64,000 bases of DNA from Macrostomum lignano (Eukaryota): contig NIVC01002858.1 in NCBI GenBank assembly GCA_002269645.1, forward strand, positions 1 through 64,000. The letters run 5' to 3'. The notes beneath the pieces were generated by a model that ran no database searches, was not told the origin of the DNA, and worked only from the letters and a program-made list of their open reading frames with translations. A program made the translations under genes and the position numbers. Positions 1 through 18,778 of the stretch are shown one piece after another (the stretch's first letter is position 1; every line of letters starts with the position of its first letter).

Positions 1-748
1 AAAACACAATTTTAAGAAATCTTACAAGAGACATTTCCGATCAATTTTAATTCCGGAAATAATGTTTATTTATATAATAACTTTTCCATTTAAATAAAGG
101 AAAGGGATTAAGTTCGAAAGACTCCGAAAGGATTTTAATTTTAGTGATATTATTTCAATTTTTCTTATTCGAGAGAATACAAAGTTTATAAGGATAGGTA
201 ACATACTAACGAAATGTTACTGAAAAAGTCATTGGAATTTTTATGTATTGATAAAAAATTTAAACCTAGGATCAGAAGAGAGTTACCACTTTGGGAAGAA
301 TATATAAACGTATGCATTAAATAAACTAAACAAACCTGAAAGTTCTACAGTACTTCCTGACGCGCGGACTTTGTAACCCGGTAGCAATAGTTTCCGGTTT
401 GTATTCAATAGTTTCTATCGGAGGAGCTTTGGTTTGTCCAAACGCAATTCTTCAATTCCATATCGGTAAAAGTTTCAACATCCAAATTCTATTTCTATCT
501 TTTAAATATTTTTCATATAACTCAACCGCGTTGATAATTCATGAATAGTTATCTCTCCGTCATCCAATATTTTTTGCACATATAAATATAATTGATTTTT
601 ATATTGTTTTGCAACATCTCTTAAAGATTTATATTTTTCCTTTCTTTTTTAAGATATAATTTAATTGCTAAAAGTATTGATAAGTTCCTGATCAATTCAA
701 AACCTGATATTGAGCCAATTGAAAATACCTAAAAATAATTGAGATAAA

Positions 749-1006
749 TTAAGAGTTGGAATATTGTAAAATACCTAAAACAATTACACATAACATCGAT
801 AAGCTTCCAAATCCAATATTGAAAAAATCCATATTTCTGATATGATTTGAAATTCTTCTTACTTTTTTAGTATATAAATCATAATCATAATTTATTCGAT
901 CAACATTACTCAACATGTGACCCTTGCGTTGGTCGTGCATAGCACGCGAACCTTCGGTTCGGTCAAAATGATCACGTTCCCTTTTATCTGCTTCAGACAC
1001 CGACAT
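749..1006 (-). CDS. Small Polinton protein with C-terminal hydrophobic segment; contains an in-frame double-hairpin module
   Basis: 85-aa ORF with hydrophobic tail FFNIGFGSLSMLCVIVLGIL and AAAATG start context like neighbouring genes. Confidence 0.45.
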   Translation of the reverse strand: MSVSEADKRERDHFDRTEGSRAMHDQRKGHMLSNVDRINYDYDLYTKKVRRISNHIRNMDFFNIGFGSLSMLCVIVLGILQYSNS

Positions 1007-1319
1007 TTTCGTCTATTTTTAATAGCACCAAAATGAATTCCCCGCGCTCTTTGGGTATTTGTCCCGAGCTCAATAGGTATTGTATTGGAGTGATTCTTTC
1101 TTTTTTCTCCCATTTAAATCCTATTTTCCAAAACTCTTGAAGTATAATATGATTTTTTAATAACTTAATTAATTCTTGAAGCTTCTTGTTATCCTGAACA
1201 TTTACAGTACTAAATAAAAATTTGGTATGAGATTTGAATGTTTTTATATTTGATTCTTGTTTAGGAATAGGAATAATAACATTATTTTGCCGCATCGATG
1301 GAGTTCTACTAAAAGCCAT
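993..1319 (-). CDS. Hypothetical Polinton protein (108 aa)
   Basis: ORF in the co-oriented gene cluster with TATAAAATG start context; no recognisable motif. Confidence 0.45.
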   Translation of the reverse strand: MAFSRTPSMRQNNVIIPIPKQESNIKTFKSHTKFLFSTVNVQDNKKLQELIKLLKNHIILQEFWKIGFKWEKKERITPIQYLLSSGQIPKERGEFILVLLKIDENVGV

Positions 1320-1357
1320 TTTATATATAAATATTTAGATTTGTACGGGTGGTTTTT

Positions 1358-3208
1358 CTAAATAAGCGGTAGAAGGAAAAACATAACCAAACGATGTGCT
1401 ACCACAAACGGCTGCGCACGAATAAAATGTGCAGCATCCGATCCTCCAGTTCGAGCACCAAAACCCATAAGGGTTCCAGATTTATCTAAAGTTCCCCAAG
1501 TTCCACTATCATATGTGAAAACGTTCTGTCCAATGAGGGTAAAAGAATCACCAGCAAACATTGTATGACTGTAATCGGTACCAAACCCTTTGATTTAAAA
1601 TATTAATTTCAAATAAATGCCAATCGCCGTTATCAATATTTGCATAATCTACCGTTTGATCTGCGTCAGTATTAACATCCGCGCGGCTTGATCCGTCTGA
1701 TTTTTTATTACTCCATACAACGCCAAATTTATCATGCCACTCACTTGCAAAAACTATCAATCCGGCGTCGGTTGTTAATCCAGTCCCACCTTCACTTGTT
1801 GGGCGTTCGTGACAATATGCATAAAACCAAACCGCATCTGCACCATCTCCTGTAGAATTAGCGACTCGGAAATAGAAAGACGCAGATATATTTTGAAAAT
1901 GTGTGAAATTGAATTGTAATGCCCCACTTACTCCACCAGTTTCACGAGTAATTCTAGCTCCATTTTGATAATCGATATAAGAAGCGTCGCCAATTAAAGA
2001 ACCAACTGGATATATATCTCCAGCGGTTGTTGGATTTTGATATCCAGTCCAATTACAAATTACTGGCTCGAATAATGCGGCATCAATCGCGGGAATATTA
2101 TCCAATTTATTTTTATCACCGGCAGACATTCTACCATTTGAAGTTGGAGTTGCTACCTGATCTACGTACGCTCGCGGGTAGCAGATAGTATTTCATTTGG
2201 CCAATTAAGATCTTGAATTTCAACTCGGTGTTCAAATAATTGTATTAGACGAACCTCGATAGGTTGTGTAGCGGTGCCACCAGTTGGGAATAAAACGCTA
2301 TAATATTTCCAAAAATTAACCGTTAAATTAGTTAACGCAAATGAAGTTGCTTGAATTGGTGATCCCGACGTTCGTAATACCGTCCATGCATCGGTAGCAA
2401 CATTTTTTGCACGAACCGACCATCCCGATGGAATATCAATAGTTGCGCTGCCTGTAATTCTTAATTCATTTATTCTTCGATTATAACCTAAAAATTCAAA
2501 TTGAATTTCCATATTGGTTGTGGTTCCGGTATTTGGTGACCATTGTGTCGCAAGGCTTCCATCTCCAACTCGAAAAGCATCGTTGGTATTTTCGGATGCT
2601 GTAAGAACAACATCTGGATTTGAAGTATTTGATGTAAGCGGCGTGGCAAAAATATCGGCGTCGGTTACATTAGCTCGAGCGTTGACCTGCCCTAAATTGA
2701 CCGAGTCTGTGGCCTCTGTTCCAAATAATAAATTTGTTAATTTAAAATTATTCATATTGATATTGCCGTTACGACTACCAACCTGATTATCGACATAGTT
2801 CTTATCAACTACCGAGTTATTCGTTGTAATTGCAACATTTATAATTCGATTGTTATCCATATCTAAAGTTCCGGTTGCGGTGGCTTGAACATAACGCGAA
2901 TCAGAATCAGTTCGAGAATAAGAATCAGTTATATCTCTTTTTAAATTTAACCCAGTGTCAACCTCTGATTTTGTATATGAATCGCTAATATCTCTTTTAA
3001 GATTTAATGAAGTATCGATTTCAGTTTTGGTATAGGAATCTGCAACATTCCGTTTCAAATTTAGTTTAGTATCAACTTCACTTTTTTTATAACCTTCATC
3101 TTCATTAATATATCGATTATCTCCAAATGTAACACTTATTCCACCAGATGTGCCACCACCACCACTACTTGTTGTTCCGTTCCATGAGGGTGTTCCAGAA
3201 AATATCAT
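1358..3208 (-). pseudogene. Fibre/adhesin-like virion protein with discoidin-like and L-type lectin-like domains, split by two frameshifts
   Basis: ORFs 2162-3208, 1548-2129 and 1358-1561 join into one protein. It has YTKxEVD repeats, a YadA-stalk-like motif (LTNL..GT..TDSVNLGQV), ATRAYVD/MSAGDKNKLDNI fibre motifs across the first shift (2 extra nt near 2170), and a lectin-like GADAVWF...DNGDWH segment. Confidence 0.7.
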
Positions 3209-3245
3209 TTTTTACTGTCTATTTTATAGAGTCTAAAATCGAACC

Positions 3246-3689
3246 TTAGGTTCGCATGCTTTGCATGATAGTCTTAAATACTTTGTGGTTTACACGAGCT
3301 TCATTCGAAATTCGATATAAAAAATATAACGCTGCTTGTCCGCAATAACTTTTATCAAAGGTTTGAAACTGTTCGTGATGATCTCCACATAAACGATTTT
3401 TAGTATGATTAAATTTGTCTTTTATTTCCTGTAACGGAGGAAGCGCGTATGAATCAAAAAAATAAACAAGTTTTGGTTTTGAATAAACTGCTGACCAATG
3501 AACACCGTTTTCTTTTGTTGTTTCAATATTAACAATGAAAGATCCATATTGTGGTAAGTCTTTGATCTCATCTCGCATAACACATCTGAATGGTTTTATT
3601 TTTAACTGCCTCGCCCAATTTGTTAATTCGATATTGCTTGTTGTGTCCGTTCCATATCTTTGTTTAAAATCATCCCACGTCATGGTCAT
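3246..3689 (-). CDS. Adenain-like (C5) cysteine maturation protease
   Basis: Motifs GVHWSAV (His), YFFDSY (Asp) and QFQ....YCG (Gln/Cys) in adenain order, in Polinton context. Confidence 0.9.
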   Translation of the reverse strand: MTMTWDDFKQRYGTDTTSNIELTNWARQLKIKPFRCVMRDEIKDLPQYGSFIVNIETTKENGVHWSAVYSKPKLVYFFDSYALPPLQEIKDKFNHTKNRLCGDHHEQFQTFDKSYCGQAALYFLYRISNEARVNHKVFKTIMQSMRT

Positions 3690-3690
3690 T

Positions 3691-3900
3691 TTATGTTCCT
3701 GAAAAACTCTTGGTTTTAGTTAGTTTCGTAGGTGTGGGTTTTAACAATTCCTTTCTTATTTTATCAGCTTGTAACTGCCTTAATTTTGCTAGTTCTAGTT
3801 CGTAATTATCTTCAGCTTTTTTAACTTTTTCTGATTGTTTTTTTATTAAATTATTATTATTATCGTGCTTTGCACGCGAACATGTTGTTCGATTACCCAT
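3691..3900 (-). CDS. Small basic coiled-coil Polinton protein; contains an in-frame double-hairpin module
   Basis: 69-aa ORF fitted tightly between mCP and protease, with TAAAAATG start. Confidence 0.4.
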   Translation of the reverse strand: MGNRTTCSRAKHDNNNNLIKKQSEKVKKAEDNYELELAKLRQLQADKIRKELLKPTPTKLTKTKSFSGT

Positions 3901-3944
3901 TTTTACTATAGGAAACGGACAAAGTCCTCGAACCTTTGGTTCGG

Positions 3945-4730
3945 CTAAACCTGTTTTATACGTAAAATCACTGTTATTGACTGCCCACCAAAACTTATTA
4001 ATCTATCGCTTTCATCTACAATCCTAATATAAATTGATTGAACATTATATTGATTTAATGGGTAATATATTGGGGTTTGAGGTGATACAATCATTTTCTC
4101 TCCAATTGGAACAGCAAGAAATGGGATTGAATAAATAATTCCACGTTGAACCAAAACTCCGTTATCGTCTGTTATATAACCACCGTTTGAAATGTCGGTT
4201 GTTATATTAATTGTATTTACTCCACCCTCTATATTTCCAACTGTATCACCGGTGCTTGATGTGGTAACTATTCGGGAATTAAATCCAAGTATGGTTCTGA
4301 GTGAATTTGCAATTGTGAAATCAACCTGATATCCGGATCCTAGTGATAGTGTGAATCTGCCAGACGGTAAATCAACACCTATAACAATCGCGCCTGCTAC
4401 CCAATCGCCGTTAGATGTTAATTCTCCTTCTATATAAGCATTCAAATCAGTATAGCTATACGCTCCTGGGTTAACGCTAAATGTTGTCCAATTGGCTCCG
4501 GAATCTTTAGAATATCTAAATTGATTATTTGTTGCATTAATTAATTGAGGCATGTTGAAAACCGAAAATAGTATTAAACCTATTTGATAACTTAGGCTTT
4601 GATCAAGTTGTAATGGATCGCGCAATTGAATCCGTTGCTCGCTGGTTGTCATTATAAACTGTAATGTTGTACTAAATTTTGAATTAGTTCGATCTACCAA
4701 TTGTTTTATAGTATCTAAATTTGTAGTCAT
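3945..4730 (-). CDS. Minor capsid protein (penton-like, single jelly-roll)
   Basis: 261 aa with Polinton mCP-like pattern (NNQFRY, PGAYSYTDLN, C-terminal YYPL..IYIRIVDE..RLISFGG..ITVILRIK). Confidence 0.85.
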   Translation of the reverse strand: MTTNLDTIKQLVDRTNSKFSTTLQFIMTTSEQRIQLRDPLQLDQSLSYQIGLILFSVFNMPQLINATNNQFRYSKDSGANWTTFSVNPGAYSYTDLNAYIEGELTSNGDWVAGAIVIGVDLPSGRFTLSLGSGYQVDFTIANSLRTILGFNSRIVTTSSTGDTVGNIEGGVNTINITTDISNGGYITDDNGVLVQRGIIYSIPFLAVPIGEKMIVSPQTPIYYPLNQYNVQSIYIRIVDESDRLISFGGQSITVILRIKQV

Positions 4731-4828
4731 TTTTATAGTGGGAAATTAATCGGACGAAGTCCGCGTTCCGAAGGAACGATCGAACGAAGTTCGCGACCCT
4801 ATGGGGCGATCGTACAAAGGTACGCGTG

Positions 4829-5628
4829 CTATGCACGATCCTCTTCTTCCTCATTATCTTCTTTTATCAAATTTGTTAAAATTCTATGTTTCCTTTCTAA
4901 CCTCGGATTGATATAAATATGTTTGTATTGGCTATCATCCCAAATTTTTTTACACATACTTTTAAATGGTTTTGCATCCAACCCGGGATTAAATCTAGCG
5001 TGAATATTTTGTAGATCATAGTTATCTAAATCAAACATTACACAACAGCTAGCATTCTTTTTATAATCGATTCTAATTCTCTAAAGGATTGAGTAAGATA
5101 AAAAGCTCCAATTCCATCTCCTCTACCACTAACAAAAATTTCCTTTTGTAATTCTTGATCACCGTCATTAATACAATCATCAAAAATAATTAGTGTTTTA
5201 TCATGTTTTGGAATTTGATCATAGGCTAATCGGGTTGATACTCTAACAGTTGGGGCTCGATCGGACGAAGTCCGCGACCCTTCGGGGCGATCGGTGATGT
5301 TTTCTGGCTGTTGTGCCATTGTTTTACATAAATCCTCAATGTCTGCTAGATTAAATCGCGGTTCGTCATCATCCTCATATTGCTCATATGCTCTTAACAT
5401 TCTAAACAAGACATCTTTTTTTAATTTGTTTTTTAATCCATGTTTAAGAAATTCATAATATTTTATTCTAGGTTTGTTAGTATAAATTATTAAATTATTA
5501 TAGTCTAGCATTCCATCTGTTGTTAATAAATCGTAAACAAAGTGTGTTTTTCCTTTACCCGACCCACCAATTACTAAACAAAGAAAAGGATCATTTGGAA
5601 ATATCTTATCGTGTTTTGCCTTTACCAT
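4829..5628 (-). pseudogene. A32/FtsK-family genome-packaging ATPase, one frameshift
   Basis: Walker A GGSGKGKT, Walker B LIIFDD and GR.....LTQ motif. One extra A in the run near 5060 restores IKKNASCCVMFDL and joins ORF 5038-5628 to ORF 4829-5038. Confidence 0.9.
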
Positions 5629-5679
5629 TTTTAAAGAAATAATTTAAATAGGCGCGACGGTCGGAGACCTGCACTCATT

Positions 5680-7152
5680 TTACAGCGGCGCGTCCCGAAC
5701 AATCGTGCCATCAGCTTTAGCAATTGACATATATTCCTCTAGAAACAATACGTGGGCGTCAAGTGCCTGATTACCGGTTTTATTAATCTCTAACATATAA
5801 TTAAGTCCAATATTGGCTACGTTTTCTTTCTGTGCCGTTAGATCATAAACAACCACTGGATGAATGTTTAGAAACTCTGTGGGTGTGTACTGAGGGACGG
5901 CATACGCTTCATTTTTAGCATAATCTTGATAATATTTTATAAAATCATTAACATTATTATTTGCTATATTTAAATTTAGGGGGTCTTTAACCGGATAATA
6001 TTGATCATCAACCTGCAGGCGGATATTCTGAACATTAAACTCGTTAATTGCAGCAACTGCGTTGTCTGTTGCGGTAGCTGCTTGTGCTGCTATGTCACCC
6101 GATTGAAGCCAATATAAATCCCCATTTGCTCTTTTACTCCTTCTATTTGTTATCTTAAACCAAACAAAAATATATCTCACCCGACGTTTTGATGTCAGTA
6201 TTTGCCACTGGAATGAATCCTGATTGTTATTAATGGTTCGCATAAAGTGTCTACGATTCAAATAAAATATTTCCTGATCATGCGTTAACTGATTATCGAT
6301 GTGTTTTAAAAGCGGAGCTGTTACCTCAATAGTTGGTACGACTAATTGAATTGAATCTATACGAACTGCTATATCGGTTGAAATTGAGGTTCCATAAAGT
6401 ATCCTAGGCTGATATCCACCAGATATTTGCAACTGTATCCCAAATTTTAATCCTTTCCATACCCGATTTGGTGAGAAGAACCCAAATAGCGGGAAGATTG
6501 AAAAGTCCTGCTCATATGCTGTTGCTGTGGTTAAAACCGCGACTGGGAATTTATTCTGACGATCTATAAAACCAGTATTAATATCTTTTGTATTAGTCAT
6601 AGTGGTTACAACTGGAACTATGTTTGTATTAAGGTAAACAATTAGCGCTGCAGTATCTGCACCGGCTGCGTTTTGTACATTAGGGAAAACTACTGCTTGA
6701 CCGTTACCTTTATCCGGCATCCACCCAACATTATCACCAACTTGTTTTGATAAATAAGTATAATTTAAATGTTTCAAAACTCCATTAATCTCTGCGGGGT
6801 TTGATGATGTCTCAACCTCAGCACCATTAACAGTTAGTTGAGCTTGGGAAAAACATTTATAAAACCAATCATTTTCTATTATTATTCCGGATCGATCTGC
6901 GATATCTCCGGCTGCAAGAGCAGTTCCATCATTTCTAGTATACAACCATCTAACGCGGAAAAACGCATTTTTCATATCCAATATAGTGTTGGTTGCGCCG
7001 ATGTCAAAAGTTACCGTTCCAGTAGTAAAGTTATTTGAATTATCACTTGTTGGTAGGGTATAATTTAAATCTCTTGCTCTGACCTCATTAATATACTGTC
7101 GGTGCTTTTTGAAATGAAATTTATCACTCCACATAGTTTTTGTTTCAGCCAT
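5680..7152 (-). CDS. Major capsid protein (double jelly-roll, hexon-like)
   Basis: 490 aa, beta-rich, FSQAQLTVNGAEVE motif; size and position next to the ATPase and mCP are typical of a Polinton MCP. Confidence 0.85.
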   Translation of the reverse strand: MAETKTMWSDKFHFKKHRQYINEVRARDLNYTLPTSDNSNNFTTGTVTFDIGATNTILDMKNAFFRVRWLYTRNDGTALAAGDIADRSGIIIENDWFYKCFSQAQLTVNGAEVETSSNPAEINGVLKHLNYTYLSKQVGDNVGWMPDKGNGQAVVFPNVQNAAGADTAALIVYLNTNIVPVVTTMTNTKDINTGFIDRQNKFPVAVLTTATAYEQDFSIFPLFGFFSPNRVWKGLKFGIQLQISGGYQPRILYGTSISTDIAVRIDSIQLVVPTIEVTAPLLKHIDNQLTHDQEIFYLNRRHFMRTINNNQDSFQWQILTSKRRVRYIFVWFKITNRRSKRANGDLYWLQSGDIAAQAATATDNAVAAINEFNVQNIRLQVDDQYYPVKDPLNLNIANNNVNDFIKYYQDYAKNEAYAVPQYTPTEFLNIHPVVVYDLTAQKENVANIGLNYMLEINKTGNQALDAHVLFLEEYMSIAKADGTIVRDAPL

Positions 7153-7186
7153 TTTTTTAAGTTAAAAAAGTTTTTTATGTTAAAAA

Positions 7187-7858
7187 ATGAGTCAATTTAT
7201 GGACGTTGATGGAGAGTTAGCGATTTATAAAGAGAAGCAAAGATATTCTGATTTTGTTAGAAATTTACAAAAAAGAAAGTTAGGAATACAATTAGCGGGT
7301 GAAAGATTTGCTGCTCCTTTTGTTAATCCTATTACTGGGAAAATTAGTGAACTAGAAAAAACAGATAAAGATCTTCTGGAAAAAATTGCTAAAAATACGG
7401 AGCCAAAAGAGGATGAAATTTTGGATGAGCCGCCAGCTTATGATGTTGATCAAGCTCAATTGAGAGTTGCAGAGATTAGGGCTGCAGAAAGGGGTGGAGT
7501 TGATGAATATCCGAGAGCTGCACCAACTAGTATTGCTGTGACAGATTTAGGTAATAATAATTATCGAATTGGTGGAGTTGATAAAAATCGAAATGAACTA
7601 TATAGAGAATTGGGCGGAGCATATAATATTGTTATGAACCCTAGGGTAAAATTTAACCCTGAATTATATACTAGGGATGAATTAGTAAGTGCAAAAATTT
7701 TTTATGATGAGTTGGGAGTAAGAGCTGCTAAAAATACCAGCTTGTATAAAAGGATTGTTAATTCTATAAATAACAAACCAGCTGTTGGAGAAGGATTTAA
7801 AACACCGCGAAAACTTGTTTTAGCTGCTGCGAAAGCTGCTGGACATACTGGAGTTTAA
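7187..7858 (+). CDS. Hypothetical Polinton protein (223 aa), possibly a virion core protein
   Basis: Clean ORF, TAAAAAATG start, divergent from MCP across a 34-bp AT-rich gap. Confidence 0.6.
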   Translation: MSQFMDVDGELAIYKEKQRYSDFVRNLQKRKLGIQLAGERFAAPFVNPITGKISELEKTDKDLLEKIAKNTEPKEDEILDEPPAYDVDQAQLRVAEIRAAERGGVDEYPRAAPTSIAVTDLGNNNYRIGGVDKNRNELYRELGGAYNIVMNPRVKFNPELYTRDELVSAKIFYDELGVRAAKNTSLYKRIVNSINNKPAVGEGFKTPRKLVLAAAKAAGHTGV

Positions 7859-7885
7859 TTAATTGTTAAATTTATTTTTTATAAA

Positions 7886-8455
7886 ATGGAACCTAAAAAG
7901 ATTTGTATTAAGTGTAAACAAGAAAAACCAATGACGAAAGAATTTTATTTTTGGAGAAATGATTCAAAAAAAATTAGAAATGATTGTCGATCTTGTCATA
8001 ATACCTCATCTACTATTTGGATGAAAAACAATAAAGATAAATTTAATGAATATAGAAAAAACAAGTATCACAATGATGATAATTACAAACATATTGTTTT
8101 AATTAGAAATAGAATAAATTGGGCGTTGAAAAATTTTAATGACAAGGACTATATCTCATATCTTGATTGCACAAAAGAATTCTTTTTTGATTGGTTAAAT
8201 TTCACAAGAAAATATTATGTTTCAAAAGATTATACTGGAAATTTAGATATTGATCATTTCATTCCCGCTTCTTCGTTTAGTTACAAAGATGAAGATCAGA
8301 TGAAAAAGTCTGAACATTGGACAAATAAAAGATACTTAACTAGCGTAGATAATAACTATAAAAAAGTTAAACAACCAACCATTGAAGAGTTTGCAAAACA
8401 ATTGGTGCTTTCATGTATTTTTAAGGCTATTAAAAATGAACCAAATAGTGTTTGA
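7886..8455 (+). CDS. Free-standing HNH endonuclease with N-terminal zinc ribbon
   Basis: CxxC...CxxC (CIKC, CRSC) followed by LDIDHFIPASSF...HWTN...DN..K, the HNH pattern seen in large DNA viruses and phages. Confidence 0.85.
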   Translation: MEPKKICIKCKQEKPMTKEFYFWRNDSKKIRNDCRSCHNTSSTIWMKNNKDKFNEYRKNKYHNDDNYKHIVLIRNRINWALKNFNDKDYISYLDCTKEFFFDWLNFTRKYYVSKDYTGNLDIDHFIPASSFSYKDEDQMKKSEHWTNKRYLTSVDNNYKKVKQPTIEEFAKQLVLSCIFKAIKNEPNSV

Positions 8456-10043
8456 AGGAGGATTGTTAGATGTTCAAAAAGGATTAACAAGCTTACCACC
8501 AATCTTTACTACTGGTAAATATACAGGGGAACTACACCTACCATCAATGAACTTCACAGGTTAACCCGTGGCCTGAGTGAGGAAGGCAATGTCCTTGCTA
8601 GTCACTATTTGTGGCGACATCTCCAAATTGCGTGAAACCCATCATACAGCTTCAAGTACCACTTCAATTGAGAAATCTTTTGAAGGAACAGAGGTAACTC
8701 CTCTTCCCAATCGTGCTTTGCACGCGAACCTATGGTTCGATGGTAACAAGCTTGAAGACACGGTGGCAATGCGCAGCCAAGCTCCTAAGTATTTTAAATA
8801 TAAGGAGAAGGTTCAGAGAGCAGACGGAGATGGGCGGTAATTATCGCCGCTTAAGGTGTGCTCCAGCCTCTTTCGAAAGATTGAGGGTAAACTACCCGGC
8901 ACTCGCTTAGATTTGAGATTAAATCCTGATGACACCCCAAAAGCCGATTCAATTCCCATAAATGGAATTGATTGGTTAGCATACTATCATGACTTAGCAT
9001 ACAGAGATGCTGATAAGAACACACCCGAGGAAGCATTAAGATTAAAACATGAAGCCGATCAAAAAATGATTCAAGGATTAGATAACTTGCAGGGATTATC
9101 GGTAGGTCAAAAATTAACTAGGTGGATGGTTAAAAAGATCTTGCAGTCTAAAGTTAAATTTGGTTTGGGAATTAATTATAATCAACATGGAAATAATTGT
9201 GTTGAGTGTTTGTTGTTAAGTGGTGGTGGGTTAAGTTCTGATGAGGCAAAGATTCTTCATAAAGAATATCGAAAACCGAAATTTTATAGAAAAATCATGA
9301 ACTTCAAAAAGAATGAAATTTGGTATGCTGATTTAATGTCGATGCCGAACGAAAGAGGATATAAATATATCTTAACCATATTAGATGGTTTTACTCGATA
9401 CGCGTGGGCTGTTCCTTTGAAATCCAAAAAAGGAGAGGATGTTGCTGCTGCTTTTAGAAGTCTTGGAGAAAAAAGCGAACGTTTGTGTGTTGACGAAGGA
9501 AAAGAATTTTACAATCCTCATATGCATAAATTATATCATTTTGAAAAAGGACAAGAAAGGAAAAAAGACGCGAATGGGGAGTATATTAATAAAATTTATT
9601 CTATTTATGGAGAAAGCAAAAACGCATTAATAGAAAGATTTAATCGAACTTTAGGTAAGAAATTGTGGTTTCAGTTTAGTCTTAATGGTAACCAAAAATG
9701 GGTAAAAATATTACCAGACGTAGTGAAAGATTATAACAATTCATATCATTCGGCGATAAAGATGACTCCTCAACAAGCTTATAACAATCCTGAAAACGTT
9801 AAAGTTACTTTTGGAAAATTTGAAAAAAATAAAAAGAAATCTTTTAAGGTTGGTGATTCTGTTTATATCTATAAATGGAAAGATAAGTTTGAAAAAGGAA
9901 GAAAAGGATATTGGAAGATAAGTGAGAAATTTACTATCAGTAAAGTTTTAAATACCAATCCTACAACCTATATAATTGCTGATAAGGACGGTGAAGAAAT
10001 ATTGGGTTCGTTTTATGAGAACCAACTAATATCAGCGAACTAA
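8436..10043 (+). CDS. Parvovirus-VP1-type phospholipase A2 (PLA2X-like) fused to rve integrase; two exons, 8436-8561 and 8895-10043, about 424 aa
   Basis: Joining the exons restores HLPSMNFTG|PGTRL (the YxGPG loop), followed by PINGID..AYYHDLAY and HEAD. The integrase triad is WYADL / CVDEGKEF / IERFNRTL, with a C-terminal GSFYENQL. Confidence 0.9.
8562..8894 (+). ncRNA. Group I intron, IC1-like, without an internal homing endonuclease
   Basis: P1 CAGGU/GCCUG with U-G at the 5' splice site; P3 CAUCUCC/GGAGAUG; P AAAUUGCGUGAAA; Q AAUGCGCAGC; R GUUCAGAGAGCA; S AAGGUGUGCUCC. P7 has a bulged A8817 and G8818-C8863 pair. P5abc has a GAAA tetraloop and A-rich bulge. P6, P8 and P9 hairpins all pair. 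Confidence 0.93.
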
Positions 10044-10053
10044 GTTCGAACAG

Positions 10054-10308
10054 TTACTTAAGACAACATGGTAGTAAATTTTTTATTACAAACAAAAACA
10101 ATATTATTACTATTATTGTTACTAATATTATTATTGACATTTGTTCAACTGTTATCAAACTTAAATTTTCATTAAGTTCATTAATTGGAACATTTCCGAT
10201 GTAGGAATAATCGTGCAAAGCACGCGAACCATGGGTTCGATTTACCTTCATTTTTTTATATATATTTTTCATAATAAACGTCGTTTCTGTTATAGAATAA
10301 TAGTTCAT
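10054..10308 (-). CDS. Small Polinton membrane protein; contains an in-frame double-hairpin module
   Basis: 84 aa with strongly hydrophobic C-terminal helix SIIILVTIIVIILFLFVI; TAAAAAATG start. Confidence 0.45.
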   Translation of the reverse strand: MNYYSITETTFIMKNIYKKMKVNRTHGSRALHDYSYIGNVPINELNENLSLITVEQMSIIILVTIIVIILFLFVIKNLLPCCLK

Positions 10309-10324
10309 TTTTTAAATATTTTTT

Positions 10325-10639
10325 TCACATAAAAATTTCACTTTCATTCTCTGAATCACTGGTTTCATATGAACTATTTGTTGATTCGGAATCTGTTGAT
10401 CTAACCTCCCAATCATCCGAATTTAAATAATCTCCAAGTTGAAATATTAACTCACCCTCTTGTTCTAAATCATACATCTCATCTAGCTCTAATGGATAAA
10501 GCTTTAGGTCATGCTTGTCGTCATATTTTAAATAAACTTCATCAATTATTCCATTCAAAATATGTTGTTTTATTATCTCTGCATTTTTAGCAACAGTCTC
10601 AAAAGTATCACTAACAGAAAAGGTGTAAACTCGGGTCAT
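10325..10639 (-). CDS. Small acidic Polinton protein (104 aa)
   Basis: Clean ORF with TAAAAATG start and Ser/Glu-rich tail. Confidence 0.5.
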   Translation of the reverse strand: MTRVYTFSVSDTFETVAKNAEIIKQHILNGIIDEVYLKYDDKHDLKLYPLELDEMYDLEQEGELIFQLGDYLNSDDWEVRSTDSESTNSSYETSDSENESEIFM

Positions 10640-10696
10640 TTTTAGTAACAGAAAAAGACCCTTCGCGCCTGCGGCGCGGGCAAGGGGTTATAGAGT

Positions 10697-10970
10697 AGTA
10701 GTAGGGAAAAAGACGCTTCCAGATCAGACCTTTTTTAATGATCGTTTATAAGGTTCCAGAGGGGGGACACGAGGGGTGTGATAAGATGAGTTGGGGATGG
10801 GTTATATTGATTTTTGGTATTAAGGGGTGTTGTGGGTGATTATGGGTGATTAGATGTGTTAAGGGTGTTTAGATGTGTTTTTTATTTACCCCCCGTGTCC
10901 CCCCTCTAGACCCTTAAAACGGCTGTTAAAAAAGTGCTCTGGGTCTGGAAGCGTCTTTTTCCCTACTACT
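10697..10970. repeat. Polinton right terminus with internal inverted copy (racket-like fold-back)
   Basis: AGTAGTAGGGAAAAAGACGCTTCCAGA...GAGGGGGGACACG (about 10697-10777) is an imperfect inverted repeat of about 10888-10970. Confidence 0.8.
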
Positions 10971-11575
10971 CCTGGCTGTGGGCGGTGCGGAACAAAGAGC
11001 CTATATGCCGCTTCCCACTGTCTGGGCTCTGGGCCCACTGTGAGAGAAGGGAGCTCGGGGAACTCGGAGCTCTCTAAGACTTGTGATCCCTTTGCCATCC
11101 CGATTCTATATGGTCTGTGGGCTTGGGGGATGTCTCGAGAGGTGAACTCTATTGTCCACCCTCCCTGCTGGCTCTGCTGGCTGACTGTATGGTGTTTTTT
11201 ACTGCGATAGCTCCGTGTAATGAACCGAAGTTCCCCTTTGTTCTGGCCAAGATCTTGGAGCCCTCTGGCGCCATTCGAACTGTATTCTTCTTCTTCGCTG
11301 AATTTATTGAGTGAGAATTCTGCTATTCTATGACAAAGCTTTTAGTTTTACTTTAAAGTTTAAACTAAAGGTTAGGAAATACAACTGCACCAATCCCGAA
11401 CAAACTCTGGCTAGTCCACATCAAAGCTCCACAGAGACTCAGGTTTGGATAGAGTTTAGAACTACAAATTTAATAGTTTTAGAAGACTAGATTTAGAAGC
11501 CAAAGTTCAATATGCGCTCGTAGTTGCAGTTTGGAATTTAAAGAAAAACAATAAGTACTTCAATTTTTCTCCATC

Positions 11576-14425
11576 ATGGAGAAGAGAGAAAGAAGTAGAC
11601 GATCGCACCGTAGAGACGCAAAGAAATCTTTGGAAGAATTGTTGCAAGAGACTGCAACGAACCGTAACTGCCGTGTTGCAGAAACACAGGAACAATTGAA
11701 CGAGTTTCAAACTGAACCTGCAGCTACAGCTGCATCCATGAGTTTCCGCTCCCCTGTTCCCCTGGCATCGCATTTGCATCCCAACAGCTTTTCGCCCGGC
11801 CATTCAGATTCCGAGCTTGACACAATCTGTGACGACGAGCCAGAAGTTGTTGACAGAAGCTATTACTACTCAGCCGAAGCTTCAGGTAACTAATTATTGT
11901 TATTTATACTGCTAAGTATAAATTACATGTACGCACTCGCACTCGCACTGCATGTATAGATATAGATATATACATCTATATACTTTATACTATATACTAT
12001 ATACAGTCTGAATCTGAATATTTTAAAAATATTTTAACATACATATATAAATGCAGTGTATTATATATATTAAGTTTAAATTAAACCCTCACCCATAAAC
12101 CATCGCCCATAAACCATAGAACTAATAAAGTTCATACTATACTATAGTACATGCTATATTCATGGGCGAATGGGTTGGTGCATGGGTTTATGGGTGAAGC
12201 CATTTTTCATATATTAGATGTACATACATGTATATATGTAAACTGCATGTATATACGAGCGTATGTTTGCTATTCTTTCATTGATTTTCTCTCCAGAGAG
12301 AAGAAAAGCTCGAATAGAAGATCAAAAAGAACGACGAGACATAGCTCGTAACTAGCTAGCTATACCAGTATGCAATTTAAACATTTTAATTAATTAAATT
12401 TTTAAGGGTATTCGTACGTATTTTTACGAGGTACATGTAGTAGAGCTTCAATTTGAGACTTTGAGTAATCACAGTGACAGGGCTAGGCTGATAATTGGTA
12501 GGCTTTAATGAAGGATAAGAGCACCAGAGATACAGCTTCTCTTTTTGCTACACTGCACTTTCTAAAAATACCCACTCTACCTTCATCACAGACATCGAAT
12601 ATCAAGACGGAGACGATTTAGAAGAAGCTGGTCAACTGGAGTCAAGTGGAGTGCGAAGAATCCTGCATGACTGGGTAGAGGCGAACAACCCAAAAATAAG
12701 CTCAGTCAACGACCTCCTCAAACGCATGTCAGAGATTCACCCGGAGCTTCCCGCAGATGCTCGAACTTTGATGGAGACTCCGAGAGATCTGAATTTGAAA
12801 CGCGTTGAGCCAGGTCACTACTTTCACTTTGGCATAGTAAAAGGGCTAGATTTCATTTTTTCAACTTGTCCTCTGCCGTCAAATGAAGCAATGATGTTTC
12901 ATTTGTTTTTAGATGGTGCTAAGGTTTATAAGAGTTGCAATACCACAATGTGGCCCATATTGGGTCGAGTGAAAGGAATCTCGCATTCTGATTTTGTAAT
13001 TGGAATTTATTGTGGCTCAAAAAAGCCTTTGTCTGCCTCTGATTTTTTGTCGGATAGCATCTCTGAACTCAGTGACTTACTCTCTAATGGCTATATTAAT
13101 TCCGGTGTTACCATCCCATTTGTTCTAGAGATGGTTATGTGTGATGCTCCTGCAAGGCACTTTGTAAAAGGTACGAAAAACTGCACTGGCTATTCTGCTT
13201 GTGACAAGTGCACCGTGCGAGGTCAGTATGTGCATGGAAGAGTTGTTTTCTGCGACACAGATGCACCAATTAGAACTGATGCTGATTTCCGCTTTGCTAG
13301 TTCACCCGAATGTCCTCAAAATCATTTGTACAAACAGCACGTTACATCTGCTAGCTTATTTTGTGCATTGCCAATCGATATGATTTCAACGTTTCCTGTA
13401 GACCCAATGCACCTACTGTACGAAGGAGTTGTTCATAAGTGCTTAAACAACCTAGGCTCAGCTGTTGTGCCTCATCGTGTTGCATCTGCCTCAAAGCGTG
13501 AAATTAACAGCGCACTAGAAGTTGTGGCGCAAGGCATAACCCATGACTTCCCGCGTAAGCCTCGATCATTGGATGTTTTAGGGCAGTGGAAGGCAGTCGA
13601 GTTTCGACTTTTTATTCTGTATTTGGCTCCTGTTGTCCTGCAAGGCCTTGTTTCAGACACGATGTACAGTCTGTTTGTATCCTTACACGTTTTTTCCTTT
13701 CTGCTTTCGAATCCGATCACGAGCAGCATGCACTGCGACTATGCCGAAAGCCTTGCGAAATGGATTCTTCGTTGCTGTCAACGCCTTTGGGGGCAAGAAT
13801 TCATAGTGTACAATTTGCACACCCTCATCCATATCCCTGCTGATGTTCGCCGATTTGGCCCCTTGGAGCAGTTTAGCTGCTTTTGGGGCGAAAATTTTCA
13901 ACGTTTCATTGCTGCCTTTTGCCGTGGTCCCTTCATGGCTCTTCAGCAAGTTGTAAAGCGAGTCTCTGAGAGAGATGTTACGCTCGGTTTTCTTAAAAAG
14001 CATGTCAAAAAAGTACAATTAGCCCAGTTTACTCTGTCCAGGCCCATGCCTCTGCCGACACTATTCTGCCTGTTCGAGTTTCCACAGCTTTTTCTCGCCT
14101 CGACTTACCTTTAAAGTCAACATTTCTATCGGTTTCTAAGCCTGATTGCTATTTTATGACTCGAACTGGGCTCGTGTGTCGAGTTTTTCACATACTTTCC
14201 ACTGTTGATAATTCCTGCTACCTGAATGTTTGTAGTTTTAGGCAAGCAGAGCCTCTTTATGTAACTCCGGTGAACTCTTTTGACACCAATATGATATCCG
14301 TTGTGAGTAAGCTTTCCAGCGGCTACAGTTTATTACGAAAAGAAGATATTTTCTGCAAGGCAATGCTTATCCCTTTAAAAGATAAGCAAGTCGCTTTCCC
14401 ACTACTGCACTCCATGCGAAGCTGA
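11576..14425 (+). pseudogene. CMC/EnSpm (CACTA)-type transposase gene, spliced, with a C-terminal frameshift
   Basis: Main ORF 12651-14114 has FLDG, WPI, CDAPAR..VKG...GYSACDKC, DPMHLLYEGV, WKAVEFR and NLHTLIH..DVRRFGPL...F..EN motifs. It continues in 14156-14425 after a shift near 14115. Plausible upstream exons at 11576-11885 and from 12591 (acceptor TCACAG). Confidence 0.8.
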
Positions 14426-15082: not shown

Positions 15083-18000
15083 CAGGGAATCCTAAAGACC
15101 TGGAAGTGACACTGTCCAATGGGGGCGGTCCAACTCAGGCCGATCCTACCTAACCAAACAAGGCAGCCCATGCCATTTTCTATAGGGTTTTCAGTATCAA
15201 CTCGATGATACAGCGCTGAAAAGTCATATCCCCTGAATTTTTTAAAGTCCTTATTGTAACGAAATAAACGAAAGTTTCATGAGGCCTTTTATAAGAAACA
15301 ATTATGCATAAAACTGGTAAACCATAGGCTATATAAACATAAAAAGGGTTTTAATCAAACTTACCAGGGTTGAAGGATCATCGGACATCAAAAAGGCAGT
15401 AATTATGCATCAGGATAAACTGGGAGCTTACTCGTAAATAAAATAATTAGCAGTAACTCGGAATCGTCAAAACAATGAAGCTTATAAAAATATACTATTA
15501 CGAGTACTAAGGATTCAATTTGGCCAGTTTGCGAGAGCAGTCCTCAGTTCTCTTCTGTTCTCCCGATTTCCGTTTGCCTACAACGGATGGGCGGTTAGCT
15601 TCAGAAGAAAGGTTTTTCAGAAAACAGTTTAGGAGTCGGAAAGAAAACTGCCGAATGACTTGTCTAAGTGAATGATTTGAGCAGCGGAAGCGACGAGCCG
15701 AAAATTTTGCACAGTTTTGAGTTTTTACTATCACGACTGATGCGAATGTTTGATGCGGTTTAAAGCTAAGAAGCTTCTGCAGCAGCTGCTTGGAGCCCTT
15801 GATGAGCTCAAACGAATTGAACGCTGTCATGCAGAGAACGAAAGCAGAATCCGATGGACAGCACAGTCCTCCCCGTGATGACTGTCGAACTAGGAAATCA
15901 CGATTAGGAGCATCGTCGAGAGTCACTTCCATTGGAGGGACCTTGTCTTCGCTCACCAAAAATTCTCTACAATCAGCACATCCCTTGCTGATGGACTTTG
16001 AAAGGTAACCTGCTATGTAGAACATCACGTTCAAACAGCCCATCTCGTTACTGCGCAAGGTCATGCATGGCTCATCTGACACATCAGCGAAGATTTCTGC
16101 TGCTCTTAGACTAACGTCAGTGTCTTCCTGCTCAACATCCTTCATGAAAGACTTCTTTAAGCGTAGCAAGTCTATTTCCGAGTGCTTAAGCAATGAAGTC
16201 ATTCTAAGTTTATTCTCGGACTGAACGACCTGCTTTGCACTGATAAAATACAATCCGCCGGACATCTGCCTGTACTTTCCGAACTGCCTTTCAAGAGGAT
16301 CGGACAACAACTTTCCCAGCAGAATGTAGTCAAAGTGGCCAGTAGAAAAAAGTTTCGCACACAATAGTGGAATGGCTGAGCATGTTTGAATGAGGCTGCC
16401 AAATGTCTCGTTTGTCAGACCATCTGCGCCTGTTGATACCGCTCGCCACTTCTTTAGGAAGCCAACAAAGTCAGCAAGGTACTGGAGCTGCCAGTCTTGC
16501 ATATTAGTTAGCGGCTCACTTTCCGGTCTTCTTAATTGTTGACCGGCGAATGGCGTTCGAACATTCAATATTGCCCACAGCTTCCTGATCATGGACAAGA
16601 AATTGGCTGTGCTATTGAACGTTGAAGTGTCTACCTCCGTGCTCTTTGTGCTTGAATACAGTCTGAGTGCAGAAACTGTTGTGTCATCGAACACAGCTGC
16701 AGCCAGTGAAGCACTAGTTCTCTCGACATTAAGAGGACGTAAAACCTTCTCCGACAGACGGAAGGCAATCTTTGACGACTGACCTCTTTCAATTTCAAAA
16801 ATAGCCTCAACATCACTGAACCTTGCCACAAAGTTGCTGCAATTGTCGAACGCTGGACAGTGAAATACACCTCGTCTCTGAAAGTTGTTATACACATTTT
16901 TAATGTTGTGAGTAGTGTCCATCAGCAAGAAGATTTCTTTCTGATCGTCACATGGATGTCGCATAGACAGCCCATGTTCAGGTACAGCTGACATTGAGTA
17001 AAACTTTCGGTTGACAGAGGAGTTGTCACAGGACAATGCAACAATTTCAAATCCACTCTTTGTGACAGCCGCAATCACTTCCTTGGCCATGTTGCATAAG
17101 TCCAGAGCGGTCAAGCAGTTAACAGGAAATAGACCGACAACATCCTGATAGGATGCGCCGACGGACTTGATTAGAAAGGCAAGAATTGAGGAGGTCATTT
17201 TACCGTCACTCGCAAGGCCGTAAGCAGAGTCGCAATTGAACTCGATTCTTTTAGCTGTTGCGACCTCATCAATAATGAGCACAACGTGCTTCTCTCTGCT
17301 AGACAGTGACTCTGTCCTCAACTGCAGGTACATTTCCTCAACCACTCCAGGCTCCTTCGAAAGAACAGCATTTAGCCTGACAAGGCTTCTTACAGATGGT
17401 AGGCAGAGGGCACCATTTTCTAGGATTGCCTTATAGGCGGCACGACTTGTCGAAAAGATCAAGTACGCAAACACAGTTGTTGATGGTGAATATCGTCGAG
17501 CAGATACTTTTTGATGAATCAGTGAGAACTGTTCAGCTAAGAAATTGACATTGCTGCTCAGTTCAGAATCATCACTCAAAGATTCGAGGTAGACTTTTAA
17601 AACGCCTTCAACAAATGCAGACGACACATTTGAATTGCGAGAGTCAACAGCAACAGTAGCCGAAGACTTAATCAAGGCTAACATGTTTTCTAAAGTCGAA
17701 AGCTGACGCACATGTAGCGAGTCATCTTTGAGCAGGTGTTTAAACATGCTATCAGAGCAAGAAAGGCCAGAGATGAAGACTTGGAAGGTAAGGTCCTGCA
17801 GTACTGTCATAGAGGCAAGCAGACAAGGAGCTGAAATCGAGTCAGATCTTGTTATCAAGTAAAACGAGACTGAATCTGCTTCCTTACTTCTGACGAATCC
17901 AGAGGGAATCGTCGCTTGTTCCAGCTTTTGAATCAAATCGCTGAAATCGCACAACTCGTCGGAGCCAAAAAAGTCGCTGATTTCCTCATCTAAGCGGACT

Positions 18001-18778
18001 TGGTCTCCCATGAAGCGCGCAGCGGAAGTGGCATTTTGACTTCTTACCTGCGTAATTGGCTTGCTCAGGTATTTCGGCAAGCCTTCAAATTGAGATGGAA
18101 CTGCATCGTCTTTGAGTCGAATCAGATGCAGCTTTGAATCAGATGCAGAAAAGCGTCGTTTCTTCCGGCGTTGATTCGCATCCGATGAACTCTTCACGAA
18201 ATCTGATTCAGTGAAATGCTTCGAGCAGACGCGTTGAAATTCGGAAGCATTTAAATCAGCATTTGGAATGGCGCGAAGCCAGCGCTGTCGCAAGTTGGTG
18301 TCTTTAGGAAAAGCATAATAGCTCACATTTTCTGTCTTCTGCGACGCGTAGCCAGATTTGCAGCCAAATACACAGCACTTGTAACCCATTATGATGCTTG
18401 CAAATGAGAGGATATTCAGTTTGATTATGAACACACGAAAGCTTACTTAAATGCAGCTCGATAGGGGCATAAGAGTTATGTGTGCATTCAACAGTGCGTC
18501 ATCATGTTTAGAATTCGTACACTCATGTACAATGCGCTCCTTTCATATTGAATCAGTCTTTATTTGGACAGTGATTTTCTCTGCACTCTCTATCCTCTCA
18601 GTCCACTCAACCCCTTCTCTATCCTTCGTTCCTCCCTTTTTCGAGTCGCTTTACTAGCCCCTGCAAGAAAATGTTTTTCCTCTTTGTCCTCTCTCCCAAA
18701 AAAGTTATCGGCCTGGGTTGGACCGGCCTGGAGGGCCTGAATATTGCAGTGTCACTTCCAGGTCTTTAGGATTCCCTG
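15083..18778 (-). mobile_element. P-superfamily (THAP) DNA transposon, apparently complete
   Basis: Perfect 32-bp TIRs CAGGGAATCCTAAAGACCTGGAAGTGACACTG (15083-15114 and 18747-18778), TSD CCCTGTC (15076-15082 and 18779-18785), and a subterminal inverted motif CGGTCCAAC(T/C)CAGGCCGAT. Confidence 0.92.
15507..18389 (-). CDS. THAP-domain P-element-like transposase (960 aa from MGYK)
   Basis: THAP zinc finger (CCVFGC, FP....RQRW, VCSKHF) and catalytic-type motifs LIIDE, SCDN, DTTHNIKN and SDPLERQFG..RQ..G; uninterrupted ORF. Confidence 0.92.
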   Translation of the reverse strand: MGYKCCVFGCKSGYASQKTENVSYYAFPKDTNLRQRWLRAIPNADLNASEFQRVCSKHFTESDFVKSSSDANQRRKKRRFSASDSKLHLIRLKDDAVPSQFEGLPKYLSKPITQVRSQNATSAARFMGDQVRLDEEISDFFGSDELCDFSDLIQKLEQATIPSGFVRSKEADSVSFYLITRSDSISAPCLLASMTVLQDLTFQVFISGLSCSDSMFKHLLKDDSLHVRQLSTLENMLALIKSSATVAVDSRNSNVSSAFVEGVLKVYLESLSDDSELSSNVNFLAEQFSLIHQKVSARRYSPSTTVFAYLIFSTSRAAYKAILENGALCLPSVRSLVRLNAVLSKEPGVVEEMYLQLRTESLSSREKHVVLIIDEVATAKRIEFNCDSAYGLASDGKMTSSILAFLIKSVGASYQDVVGLFPVNCLTALDLCNMAKEVIAAVTKSGFEIVALSCDNSSVNRKFYSMSAVPEHGLSMRHPCDDQKEIFLLMDTTHNIKNVYNNFQRRGVFHCPAFDNCSNFVARFSDVEAIFEIERGQSSKIAFRLSEKVLRPLNVERTSASLAAAVFDDTTVSALRLYSSTKSTEVDTSTFNSTANFLSMIRKLWAILNVRTPFAGQQLRRPESEPLTNMQDWQLQYLADFVGFLKKWRAVSTGADGLTNETFGSLIQTCSAIPLLCAKLFSTGHFDYILLGKLLSDPLERQFGKYRQMSGGLYFISAKQVVQSENKLRMTSLLKHSEIDLLRLKKSFMKDVEQEDTDVSLRAAEIFADVSDEPCMTLRSNEMGCLNVMFYIAGYLSKSISKGCADCREFLVSEDKVPPMEVTLDDAPNRDFLVRQSSRGGLCCPSDSAFVLCMTAFNSFELIKGSKQLLQKLLSFKPHQTFASVVIVKTQNCAKFSARRFRCSNHSLRQVIRQFSFRLLNCFLKNLSSEANRPSVVGKRKSGEQKRTEDCSRKLAKLNP

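Follow-up and report, generated by a model that had tools for sequence, protein, structure and literature searches.

How can a gene carried on an animal chromosome yield its full protein when a stop codon stands within it, and what would a group I intron be doing there? Both questions are raised by a 64,000-nucleotide (nt) stretch of Macrostomum lignano DNA (assembly GCA_002269645.1, contig NIVC01002858.1, positions 1 to 64,000 of the forward strand; hereafter the window), which begins within a Polinton-like element of a family that we call A. Near the end of this element, a gene fusing a PLA2-like domain to an rve integrase is split by a 333-nt sequence that a preliminary description had taken for a self-splicing-type group I intron. 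Based on the data presented below, we propose that it is a mobile giant-virus-type group I intron of the PLA2-integrase gene of nuclear Polintons, that it spreads by means of a GGNCC-type nuclease, and that it masks the last site open to that enzyme. We give this reading as a whole a probability of roughly 0.68.

Exact boundaries of the intron

A TAA codon follows exon 1 directly and in frame, and joining the 42 codons of exon 1 to the 382 codons of exon 2 gives a frame of 424 codons (Table 1). The in-frame stop, the restored NFTG|PGT junction and the 424-residue open reading frame (ORF) announced in the preliminary description are thus all found in the exon translations and in natural intron-less alleles. 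The latter, which that description had suggested looking for, came from a search of the genome (G000, 764 Mb in 5269 contigs) with each exon separately, 150 rows being scored for each. Three of 139 family A exon 1 rows continue straight into exon 2, and five intron-less alleles (L079-L083) were examined, three from family A and two from a second Polinton family, B. In each of them the intron is missing exactly, with the Gly codon directly before the Pro codon. Because five natural alleles lack precisely this stretch, the ends of the intron are fixed at the Gly|Pro of the PLA2 loop. The profile PF08398 matches the intron-less L079 at 4.6e-8 over profile positions 2-72, versus 0.01 over 21-72 for exon 2 alone, and the intron therefore splits a real domain, the PLA2 part of the gene.

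A 744-nt candidate for a fourth type of intron (L096) was rejected, as it is in fact a cut-short family B start with an intron-less copy of the gene behind it. None of 47 IMG/VR stretches was confirmed as a relative of the PLA2-integrase, and a PDB sequence search with the intron-less PLA2 sequence gave no useful match. Among gene calls from outside this genome, proteins P0011, P0014 and P0029 begin exactly at Pro-Gly-Thr, the near-identical P0012 has the whole loop, and the N-terminus of P0006 matches the 3' end of the intron translated in frame; these sequences faintly hint that the same intron polymorphism may occur in other Polinton lineages. In P0013, P0020 and P0030 the PLA2 loop reads Gly-Ala instead of Gly-Pro and would be free of GGNCC without an intron.

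Ribozyme architecture and its conservation

The covariance model RF00028, a check put forward in the preliminary description, aligns along its full length with window positions 8552-8885 (+) at 60.9 bits (E 6e-15; gathering cut-off, 50 bits) and bears out the assignment of 8562-8894 as a group I intron. A fast gathering scan of the whole window with the same model did not pick it up, which may explain how such introns evade routine annotation. The intron stretch folds better than its shuffles (z -2.97), 1 of 100 shuffles being equally good.

We drew 93 pairs (P1, P2, P2.1, P3-P9, P5abc and P9.0) by hand on the window copy and counted them across natural copies. For this purpose 86 loci were reduced to 54 distinct intron sequences, 15 loci being repeats of places already taken; L035, L040 and L046, in which one exon was not located, and also L084 and L096 had been left out. 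Across the 32 distinct sequences of the window's kind (type A), the pairs are kept in 98.8% of cells, and 10 pairs carry two-sided changes, four of them contributed by a single P2 variant. Across all 54 sequences, 96.3% of cells are paired and 29 pairs show two-sided changes, versus 38-50% of cells paired in a control with partners shifted by 1-3 columns; these figures are not probabilities, since the pairing model derives from the window copy and the sequences compared share ancestry. P7 reads GAGCA/UGCUC in the window, just as the preliminary description had it, and GACUU/AAGUC in family B, three of its pairs being swapped on both sides between the two. All six P7 pairs are intact in 32/32 type A sequences, and the guanosine-binding G-C pair after the P7 bulge is present in 32/32 of these and in 52/54 overall, both exceptions being rows of type C (see below).

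Of the usual features of subgroup IC1, those present are P5abc with its A-rich bulge and GAAA loop (elements named as in the Tetrahymena nomenclature), a receptor in P6a/b, P2 and P2.1. P9.1, P9.2 and P13 were not seen in the window intron, which has only 8 nt beyond P9. The complete IC1-like core claimed earlier accordingly stands for P1, P2.1, P3-P9 and P5abc with their compensatory changes, and does not extend to a full IC1 intron; the terminal A of the intron (discussed below) had been missed. On these features, the window intron is IC1-like rather than full IC1.

It is very improbable that the host spliceosome bypasses the intron instead, with, for instance, the GT at 8560 as donor and the AG that ends at 8910 as acceptor, a choice that would keep the frame and delete the PLA2 loop. 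Fourteen frame-keeping GT-AG pairs exist, and the donor at 8560 lies in the context CAG|GT, but 14/14 of these pairs delete the Gly-Pro loop or most of exon 1, and splicing of this sort would not preserve P3-P9 with compensatory changes. Among the joints listed for the assembled contigs of 4 of 24 sequencing runs (X1, X3 and X8, presumed RNA, and X15), none spans 8562-8894, and two records (X1 record 5 and X8 record 27) bridge the 3' boundary unspliced; since rare forms do not survive in such contigs and the runs may contain DNA, the result is neutral on splicing.

Three intron lineages at one site

Type A introns (300-333 nt) belong to family A. The identical site in family B, whose protein is ~59% identical, is occupied by a longer intron, type B (836-895 nt), to which 28/28 scored matches of a genome search with RF00028 belong (72.7-91 bits). 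A third lineage, type C (326-328 nt, 42-43 bits), is found in family A and has a strongly diverged core; its P1 indicates the same 5' site, and its 3' boundary is ambiguous. As seen in L085:211-538, L086 and L092, type C has P5abc in common with type A and a replaced P3/P4/P6/P7 core, and ~25 copies have the same exon 2 start. One type C intron carries within P8 an insert of ~830 nt with repeated ends and 6 GGNCC (L084:460-1320), which is probably a host transposon. In a tree of 42 intron cores, types A and B are joined (97/98); type C, the metagenomic intron L219 described below and the viral introns are not placed, and for this reason we claim no donor.

Type A introns diverge at 4.3% of sites, versus 24% of synonymous sites in exon 1 and 32% at the start of exon 2, over 465 non-independent pairs from 32 sequences. 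Being far less diverged than the flanking synonymous sites, the intron must be under purifying selection or have spread laterally in the recent past. Both exons have a ratio of nonsynonymous to synonymous polymorphism (pN/pS) below 1 in intron-bearing copies, at 0.37 for exon 1 and 0.06 for the first 50 codons of exon 2. Type A copies ending in A and in G are alike in the divergence test and interleaved on the accompanying tree, which is of exon 1 only.

A restriction-like nuclease inside and beside the intron

Type B introns hold in their P2.1 loop an ORF that matches the Eco47II family (PF09553) with E 3.2e-7, above cut-off. Its predicted structure (pLDDT 93.4) is closest to EcoO109I (VIA Z 9.7, rmsd 3.5, 155 aligned), which Foldseek also returns (E 4e-4, TMq 0.71), with AvaII among the further matches. 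The D..ExK motif is present at 22 intronic and 16 upstream loci, and the proteins are 158-228 residues long and 13-15% identical to the solved EcoO109I structures. By sequence and structural model, the nuclease of the type B intron is predicted to be a PD-(D/E)XK enzyme resembling Eco47II/EcoO109I. According to the available parts of two sources, EcoO109I recognises RGGNCCY and AvaII GGWCC (PMC12944874), and an Eco47II homologue has been predicted "without certainty" to cut GGNCC (PMC10305163). The metagenome contig L219 carries a PLA2 exon, an intron with a nuclease (80.6 bits), a terminal G and exon 2, at the same site and with 41% amino-acid identity; it is, by its gene order, an independent case of the whole intron-nuclease layout. 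Outside proteins matching the nuclease number 17, at 46-65%, and several of them continue into sequence resembling an intron core.

In some family A copies a free-standing homologue of the nuclease (~67% identical) lies directly upstream of exon 1. Over 35 distinct type A places, with repeat fetches of a place merged by hand, this upstream slot is filled 26 times by an HNH-like gene and 9 times by the Eco47II-like gene. The window copy combines an intron that lacks a nuclease gene with the HNH form in the slot. We rejected this HNH-like ORF as the partner of the intron, as it is also carried by 3/3 intron-less family A alleles. Homologues of it occur in 6/80 intron-bearing viral loci (L176, L143, L160, L140, L098 and L159; tblastn E 1e-9 to 5e-6).

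Absence of GGNCC from the element

The window contains 81 GGNCC sites, none of them before 11031. Within the element (1-10973) there are 0 versus 14.2 expected, which makes GGNCC the most depleted of 136 gapped motifs, and stretches of host flank have observed-to-expected ratios of 0.74 and 1.18. Five family B stretches likewise have 0 GGNCC each, versus 3.5-4.3 expected, while two pPolB stretches of other Polintons have 7 versus 9.9. The dipeptide Gly-Pro occurs 0 times in 11 window ORFs, versus 5.2 expected. In the intron-less alleles, the sole GGNCC of the fetched 1.1-1.4 kb is the insertion site (5/5), and 77/87 intron-bearing loci have no GGNCC at all.

The element and its animal host

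The genome has no fewer than 40 copies of the region, which are 86-100% identical (40 of 204 candidates scored). Some of their contigs also carry Wnt genes, namely C952 (~23 kb apart), C67 and C506, and the largest contig with a copy measures 1.24 Mb. Because Wnt genes share contigs with intron-bearing copies, the host of these elements is, on gene content, an animal; the multi-copy Polinton-like element in an animal genome that the preliminary description had envisaged is upheld. It is extremely improbable that the elements belong to a contaminating or symbiotic protist or giant virus and not to the chromosomes of the animal. The closest relatives of the intron do lie in giant-virus-like contigs, but the copies sit on contigs of up to 1.24 Mb and beside Wnt genes, THAP and Pao elements flank the element in the window, and 20 runs from 7 studies of one and the same organism contain the stretch.

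The window element encodes an rve integrase (PF00665, E 5.9e-8) and a protein with a Pox_A32 packaging-ATPase match slightly below cut-off (E 1e-4). Sister copies C3469, C2506, C826, C2140 and C5207 have a pPolB gene (PF03175) at a distance of 9-11 kb upstream of exon 1; it is missing from the window, whose contig starts inside the element. Profile scans of the element proteins gave no family match for capsid and protease, which are assigned from size, order and motifs alone. Only one element end is visible in the window, palindromic and starting with AGTAGT, and terminal repeats and a 6-bp target duplication are judged from this single end. The coordinates of these and the other features are collected in Table 1.

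Table 1. Features of the intron-bearing gene and its element in the window.
Feature	Position	Strand	Basis or remark
Right part of Polinton-like element, family A	1..10973	none	contig start falls within element; rve, weak A32 ATPase, 0 GGNCC vs 14.2 expected
Free-standing HNH/endonuclease VII-like ORF, 189 aa, swappable slot	7886..8455	+	PHROG 1035, E 9e-7
Exon 1 of PLA2-integrase, 42 codons; NFTG end is the Gly of the PLA2 loop	8436..8561	+	translation; pN/pS 0.37 among type A copies
P1, with U.G pair 8561.8571 at 5' splice site	8557..8575	+	U.G in 54/54 distinct sequences
Group I-type intron, type A, 333 nt, terminal base A, no internal nuclease gene	8562..8894	+	RF00028 match, intron-less alleles, pair counts
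P5abc: P5a with A-rich bulge 8745-8749, P5b with GAAA loop 8672-8675, P5c	8650..8757	+	sequence, pair counts
Double-hairpin insert, 30 nt	8711..8740	+	in 333-nt, not in 303-nt copies; related motifs elsewhere in element
P7 (8816-8822 with 8859-8864), bulged A8817, guanosine-site pair G8818-C8863; encloses P3 3' strand and P8	8816..8864	+	
Exon 2, 382 codons from PGT: remaining PLA2-like domain and rve integrase	8895..10043	+	pN/pS 0.06 in first 50 codons
Palindromic element end, starts AGTAGT	10694..10973	none	inverted repeats I1 and I4; host-like DNA beyond; first window GGNCC at 11031

Element ends are palindromic in both families, over ~280 nt in family A (window 10694-10973) and ~100 nt in family B (L025:359-460), and the position of the PLA2-integrase gene relative to the element end is opposite in the two. 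The assembly holds 119 pPolB matches, with further pPolB families on contigs C114, C393, C1131, C1704 and others. The window flank contains an unassigned transposase-like ORF of 462 residues at 12726-14114 (+), a THAP/P-element-type transposase at 15507-18389 (-), a BEL/Pao retrotransposon at 47825-53445 (+), an ion-channel gene at 56426-59200 (-) and ankyrin repeats at 59993-61039 (-).

A GC-rich double-hairpin motif of 30-36 nt is dispersed through the element (window 932-963, 3236-3269, 3862-3943, 4747-4838, 5258-5293, 8708-8743 and 10210-10243), mainly at gene ends, sometimes in frame within genes or within the intron. A pattern for half of the motif has 6 matches in the 11-kb element and 1 in the 53 kb of flank. 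The motif varies between copies, as in the 333- versus 303-nt introns and in inserts at 8439 in runs X1 and X8. Its presence in some copies and absence from others suggest a very small mobile element or a signal for the end of transcripts.

Proposed mechanism

The system is larger than the preliminary description had it, since alleles without the intron, introns of three lineages, a GGNCC-type nuclease and the avoidance of GGNCC throughout the element all belong to it. We propose that the intron RNA would excise itself, possibly aided by protein, giving PLA2-integrase when the element is active; it is highly probable that the intron splices out of the element transcript and that the PLA2-integrase fusion is restored in this way. 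An Eco47II/EcoO109I-like nuclease would recognise GGNCC, or a longer site around it, and drive the spread of the intron. The element would have been purged of GGNCC nearly everywhere, and the Gly-Pro of the PLA2 loop would have to remain GGN-CCN. As the intron splits this last GGNCC, intron-bearing copies would be immune, and intron-less copies would be cut and then either lost or repaired off an intron-bearing template. We think it reasonably probable that the intron persists by hiding, from the nuclease of sister copies, the one GGNCC that the element cannot lose. Both stages of collaborative homing would coexist, the nuclease being housed by the intron in family B and standing free by the gene in some family A copies. 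The many GGNCC of the host may be spared because the nuclease is expressed only in a cytoplasmic or lytic phase, because its true site is longer, or because it nicks. The fullest version of the proposal, to which we would give even odds, combines a ribozyme that is active in transcripts of an animal virus integrated in the nucleus with a new kind of homing, in which a short-site enzyme owes its specificity to no long recognition sequence but to the purging of GGNCC save at one Gly-Pro pair that the intron masks, the free and intron-borne stages coexist and the terminal-A lineage is now the majority. Direct support covers the ribozyme anatomy, the exact site, the alleles with and without the intron, and the conservation of intron and exons.

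A number of points weigh against this proposal. Both splicing and cleavage by the nuclease are inferred from sequence. The last intron base, 8894, is an A and not the canonical G, and the same holds for 25 of the 32 distinct type A sequences, 7 ending in G; a terminal A is expected to slow exon ligation. Type B introns end in G in 20/20 cases, as do near-identical type A sisters such as L012. A natural group I intron with a terminal A is Cbu.L1917 of Coxiella burnetii, in bacterial rRNA. Type A introns ending in A might accordingly be poor at splicing or dead, their copies yielding only the integrase from Met 9066, where an ATG opens a 325-residue integrase ORF in the window, or relying on G-ending or intron-less copies in trans. 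We consider this quite unlikely, as A-ending copies conserve exon 1 (pN/pS 0.37), the PLA2 start of exon 2 (0.07) and the intron (4.1% versus 24-31% synonymous) as well as G-ending copies do, and the P7 pairs are all intact.

Further adverse points concern GGNCC. Its coincidence with the insertion site is weak evidence when taken alone, because Gly-Pro always spells GGNCC. The motif is present in 10/87 intron-bearing loci: the sites in L015/L055, L023, L028, L030 and one in L037 fall outside the element and those in L084 within its insert, and the sites in L036, L038, L041 and the second of L037 lie inside the element or are unplaced, and are unexplained. GGCC (3 versus 15 expected) and CCNGG (5 versus 14) are also low in the element, and the control stretches of other Polintons amount to only 6 kb. 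Giant-virus loci with distant nuclease homologues show no special depletion (367 versus 496 expected; control loci, 265 versus 345). The five intron-less alleles are too few for an exclusion test of nuclease against empty site, and a five-base cutter would hit the host too, at 81 sites in 53 kb of flank.

The high frequency of five-base sites, too great for classical homing, favors a different account, in which the ribozyme works and the nuclease is not a homing enzyme. By avoiding GGNCC, the element would then protect itself from a helper giant virus or from an enzyme directed at the DNA of its host or of competitors, and the intron would do no more than mask the last site or spread by ordinary recombination among copies. 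Distances in exon 1 and exon 2 are mosaic, and the copies therefore recombine; moreover, intron endonucleases have been proposed as weapons between related viruses in the case of Bodo saltans virus (PMC5871332, in its available part). On the other hand, the nuclease gene stands inside the intron in family B and L219 or adjoins the gene in part of family A, which are the positions expected for homing genes, and we hold this account to be unlikely. Spread of the intron by a GGNCC-type homing nuclease is the reading that we prefer.

Relation to known systems

The closest relatives of the intron among 80 IMG/VR loci lie in giant-virus-like RNA polymerase and transcription-factor genes (gene names are our own reading), and a search of metagenomes for the P5abc pattern gave 0 matches. 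The introns of Bodo saltans virus (PMC5871332, consulted in part) and of IMG/VR loci L115, L116, L146 and L167 have a related ribozyme (nhmmer E 3e-20 to 2e-18), and in the former, too, endonuclease-bearing introns stand beside endonuclease-less ones, with a proposed role in competition between related viruses. They differ in lying in RNA polymerase- and transcription-factor-like genes and in using HNH or GIY-YIG enzymes, whereas here a small integrated element carries a restriction-like enzyme. Eco47II, EcoO109I and AvaII share the PD-(D/E)XK fold and motif with our nuclease, whose specificity is only predicted; unlike in those systems, 0 of 12 scanned proteins, from the right part of the element, is a methyltransferase. 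In phage collaborative homing, as set out in the consulted part of PMC3984707, a free-standing endonuclease and an ORF-less intron likewise meet at one site, and the endonuclease later enters the intron; here, in contrast, a single animal genome harbors both states, and the site, predicted to measure only ~5 bp, is rare through its purging from the element.

Reviews assign group I introns to bacteria, phages, viruses, organelles and the nuclear rDNA of fungi, plants and algae, and describe them as scarce even in the mitochondria of early-branching animals (PMC3984707). Animal Polintons and adintoviruses with PLA2X have a parvovirus-type PLA2 domain, an rve integrase and pPolB, as here, but PLA2 is fused to the integrase in our elements, as in many unnamed relatives; in the accessible part of that report, the sole mention of an intron concerns group II maturases in other viruses (PMC8502044). 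No such intron in animal elements appears in the accessible parts of this and three other sources (10.1101/2023.08.22.554363, PMC11296320, 10.64898/2026.10.13.758929). The closest precedent is provided by protist Polinton-like viruses, in which genes of integrated elements contain RF00028 introns of comparable length, 309-376 nt in the case of Rhodomonas (PMC12220804, in part). As far as that source goes, those introns are confined to three protist hosts and to a gene of ~50 residues that precedes the capsid gene, and no endonuclease is annotated; in the Macrostomum elements, in contrast, the host is an animal and the interrupted gene that of the PLA2-integrase, and there are intron-less alleles, a nuclease and avoidance of the target site. 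The configuration had been put forward as one not known to have been described; this holds for animal nuclear genes, for which no group I intron was found in the open literature searched (subscription journals fell outside its coverage), but not for Polinton-like elements at large, given those of protists. Group I introns in protist Polinton-like viruses, endonuclease interference and collaborative homing are thus already known; what is new is the presence of three intron lineages at one site in two animal Polinton families, together with a GGNCC-type nuclease and element-wide avoidance of GGNCC.

Significance

Considerably more than 100 conserved copies in an animal nuclear assembly would constitute a natural test of the splicing of mRNA by group I introns in animal cells. 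The intron family would likewise be informative about the place of Polinton transcription and about gene flow linking giant viruses with the Polintons of animals. The proposed mechanism predicts a named target for the nuclease, GGNCC, and natural introns that are near-identical save for ending in A or in G offer a chance to test the terminal-G rule. Lastly, the pairing of nuclease and intron brings together, in one genome, both steps of a proposed origin of mobile introns.

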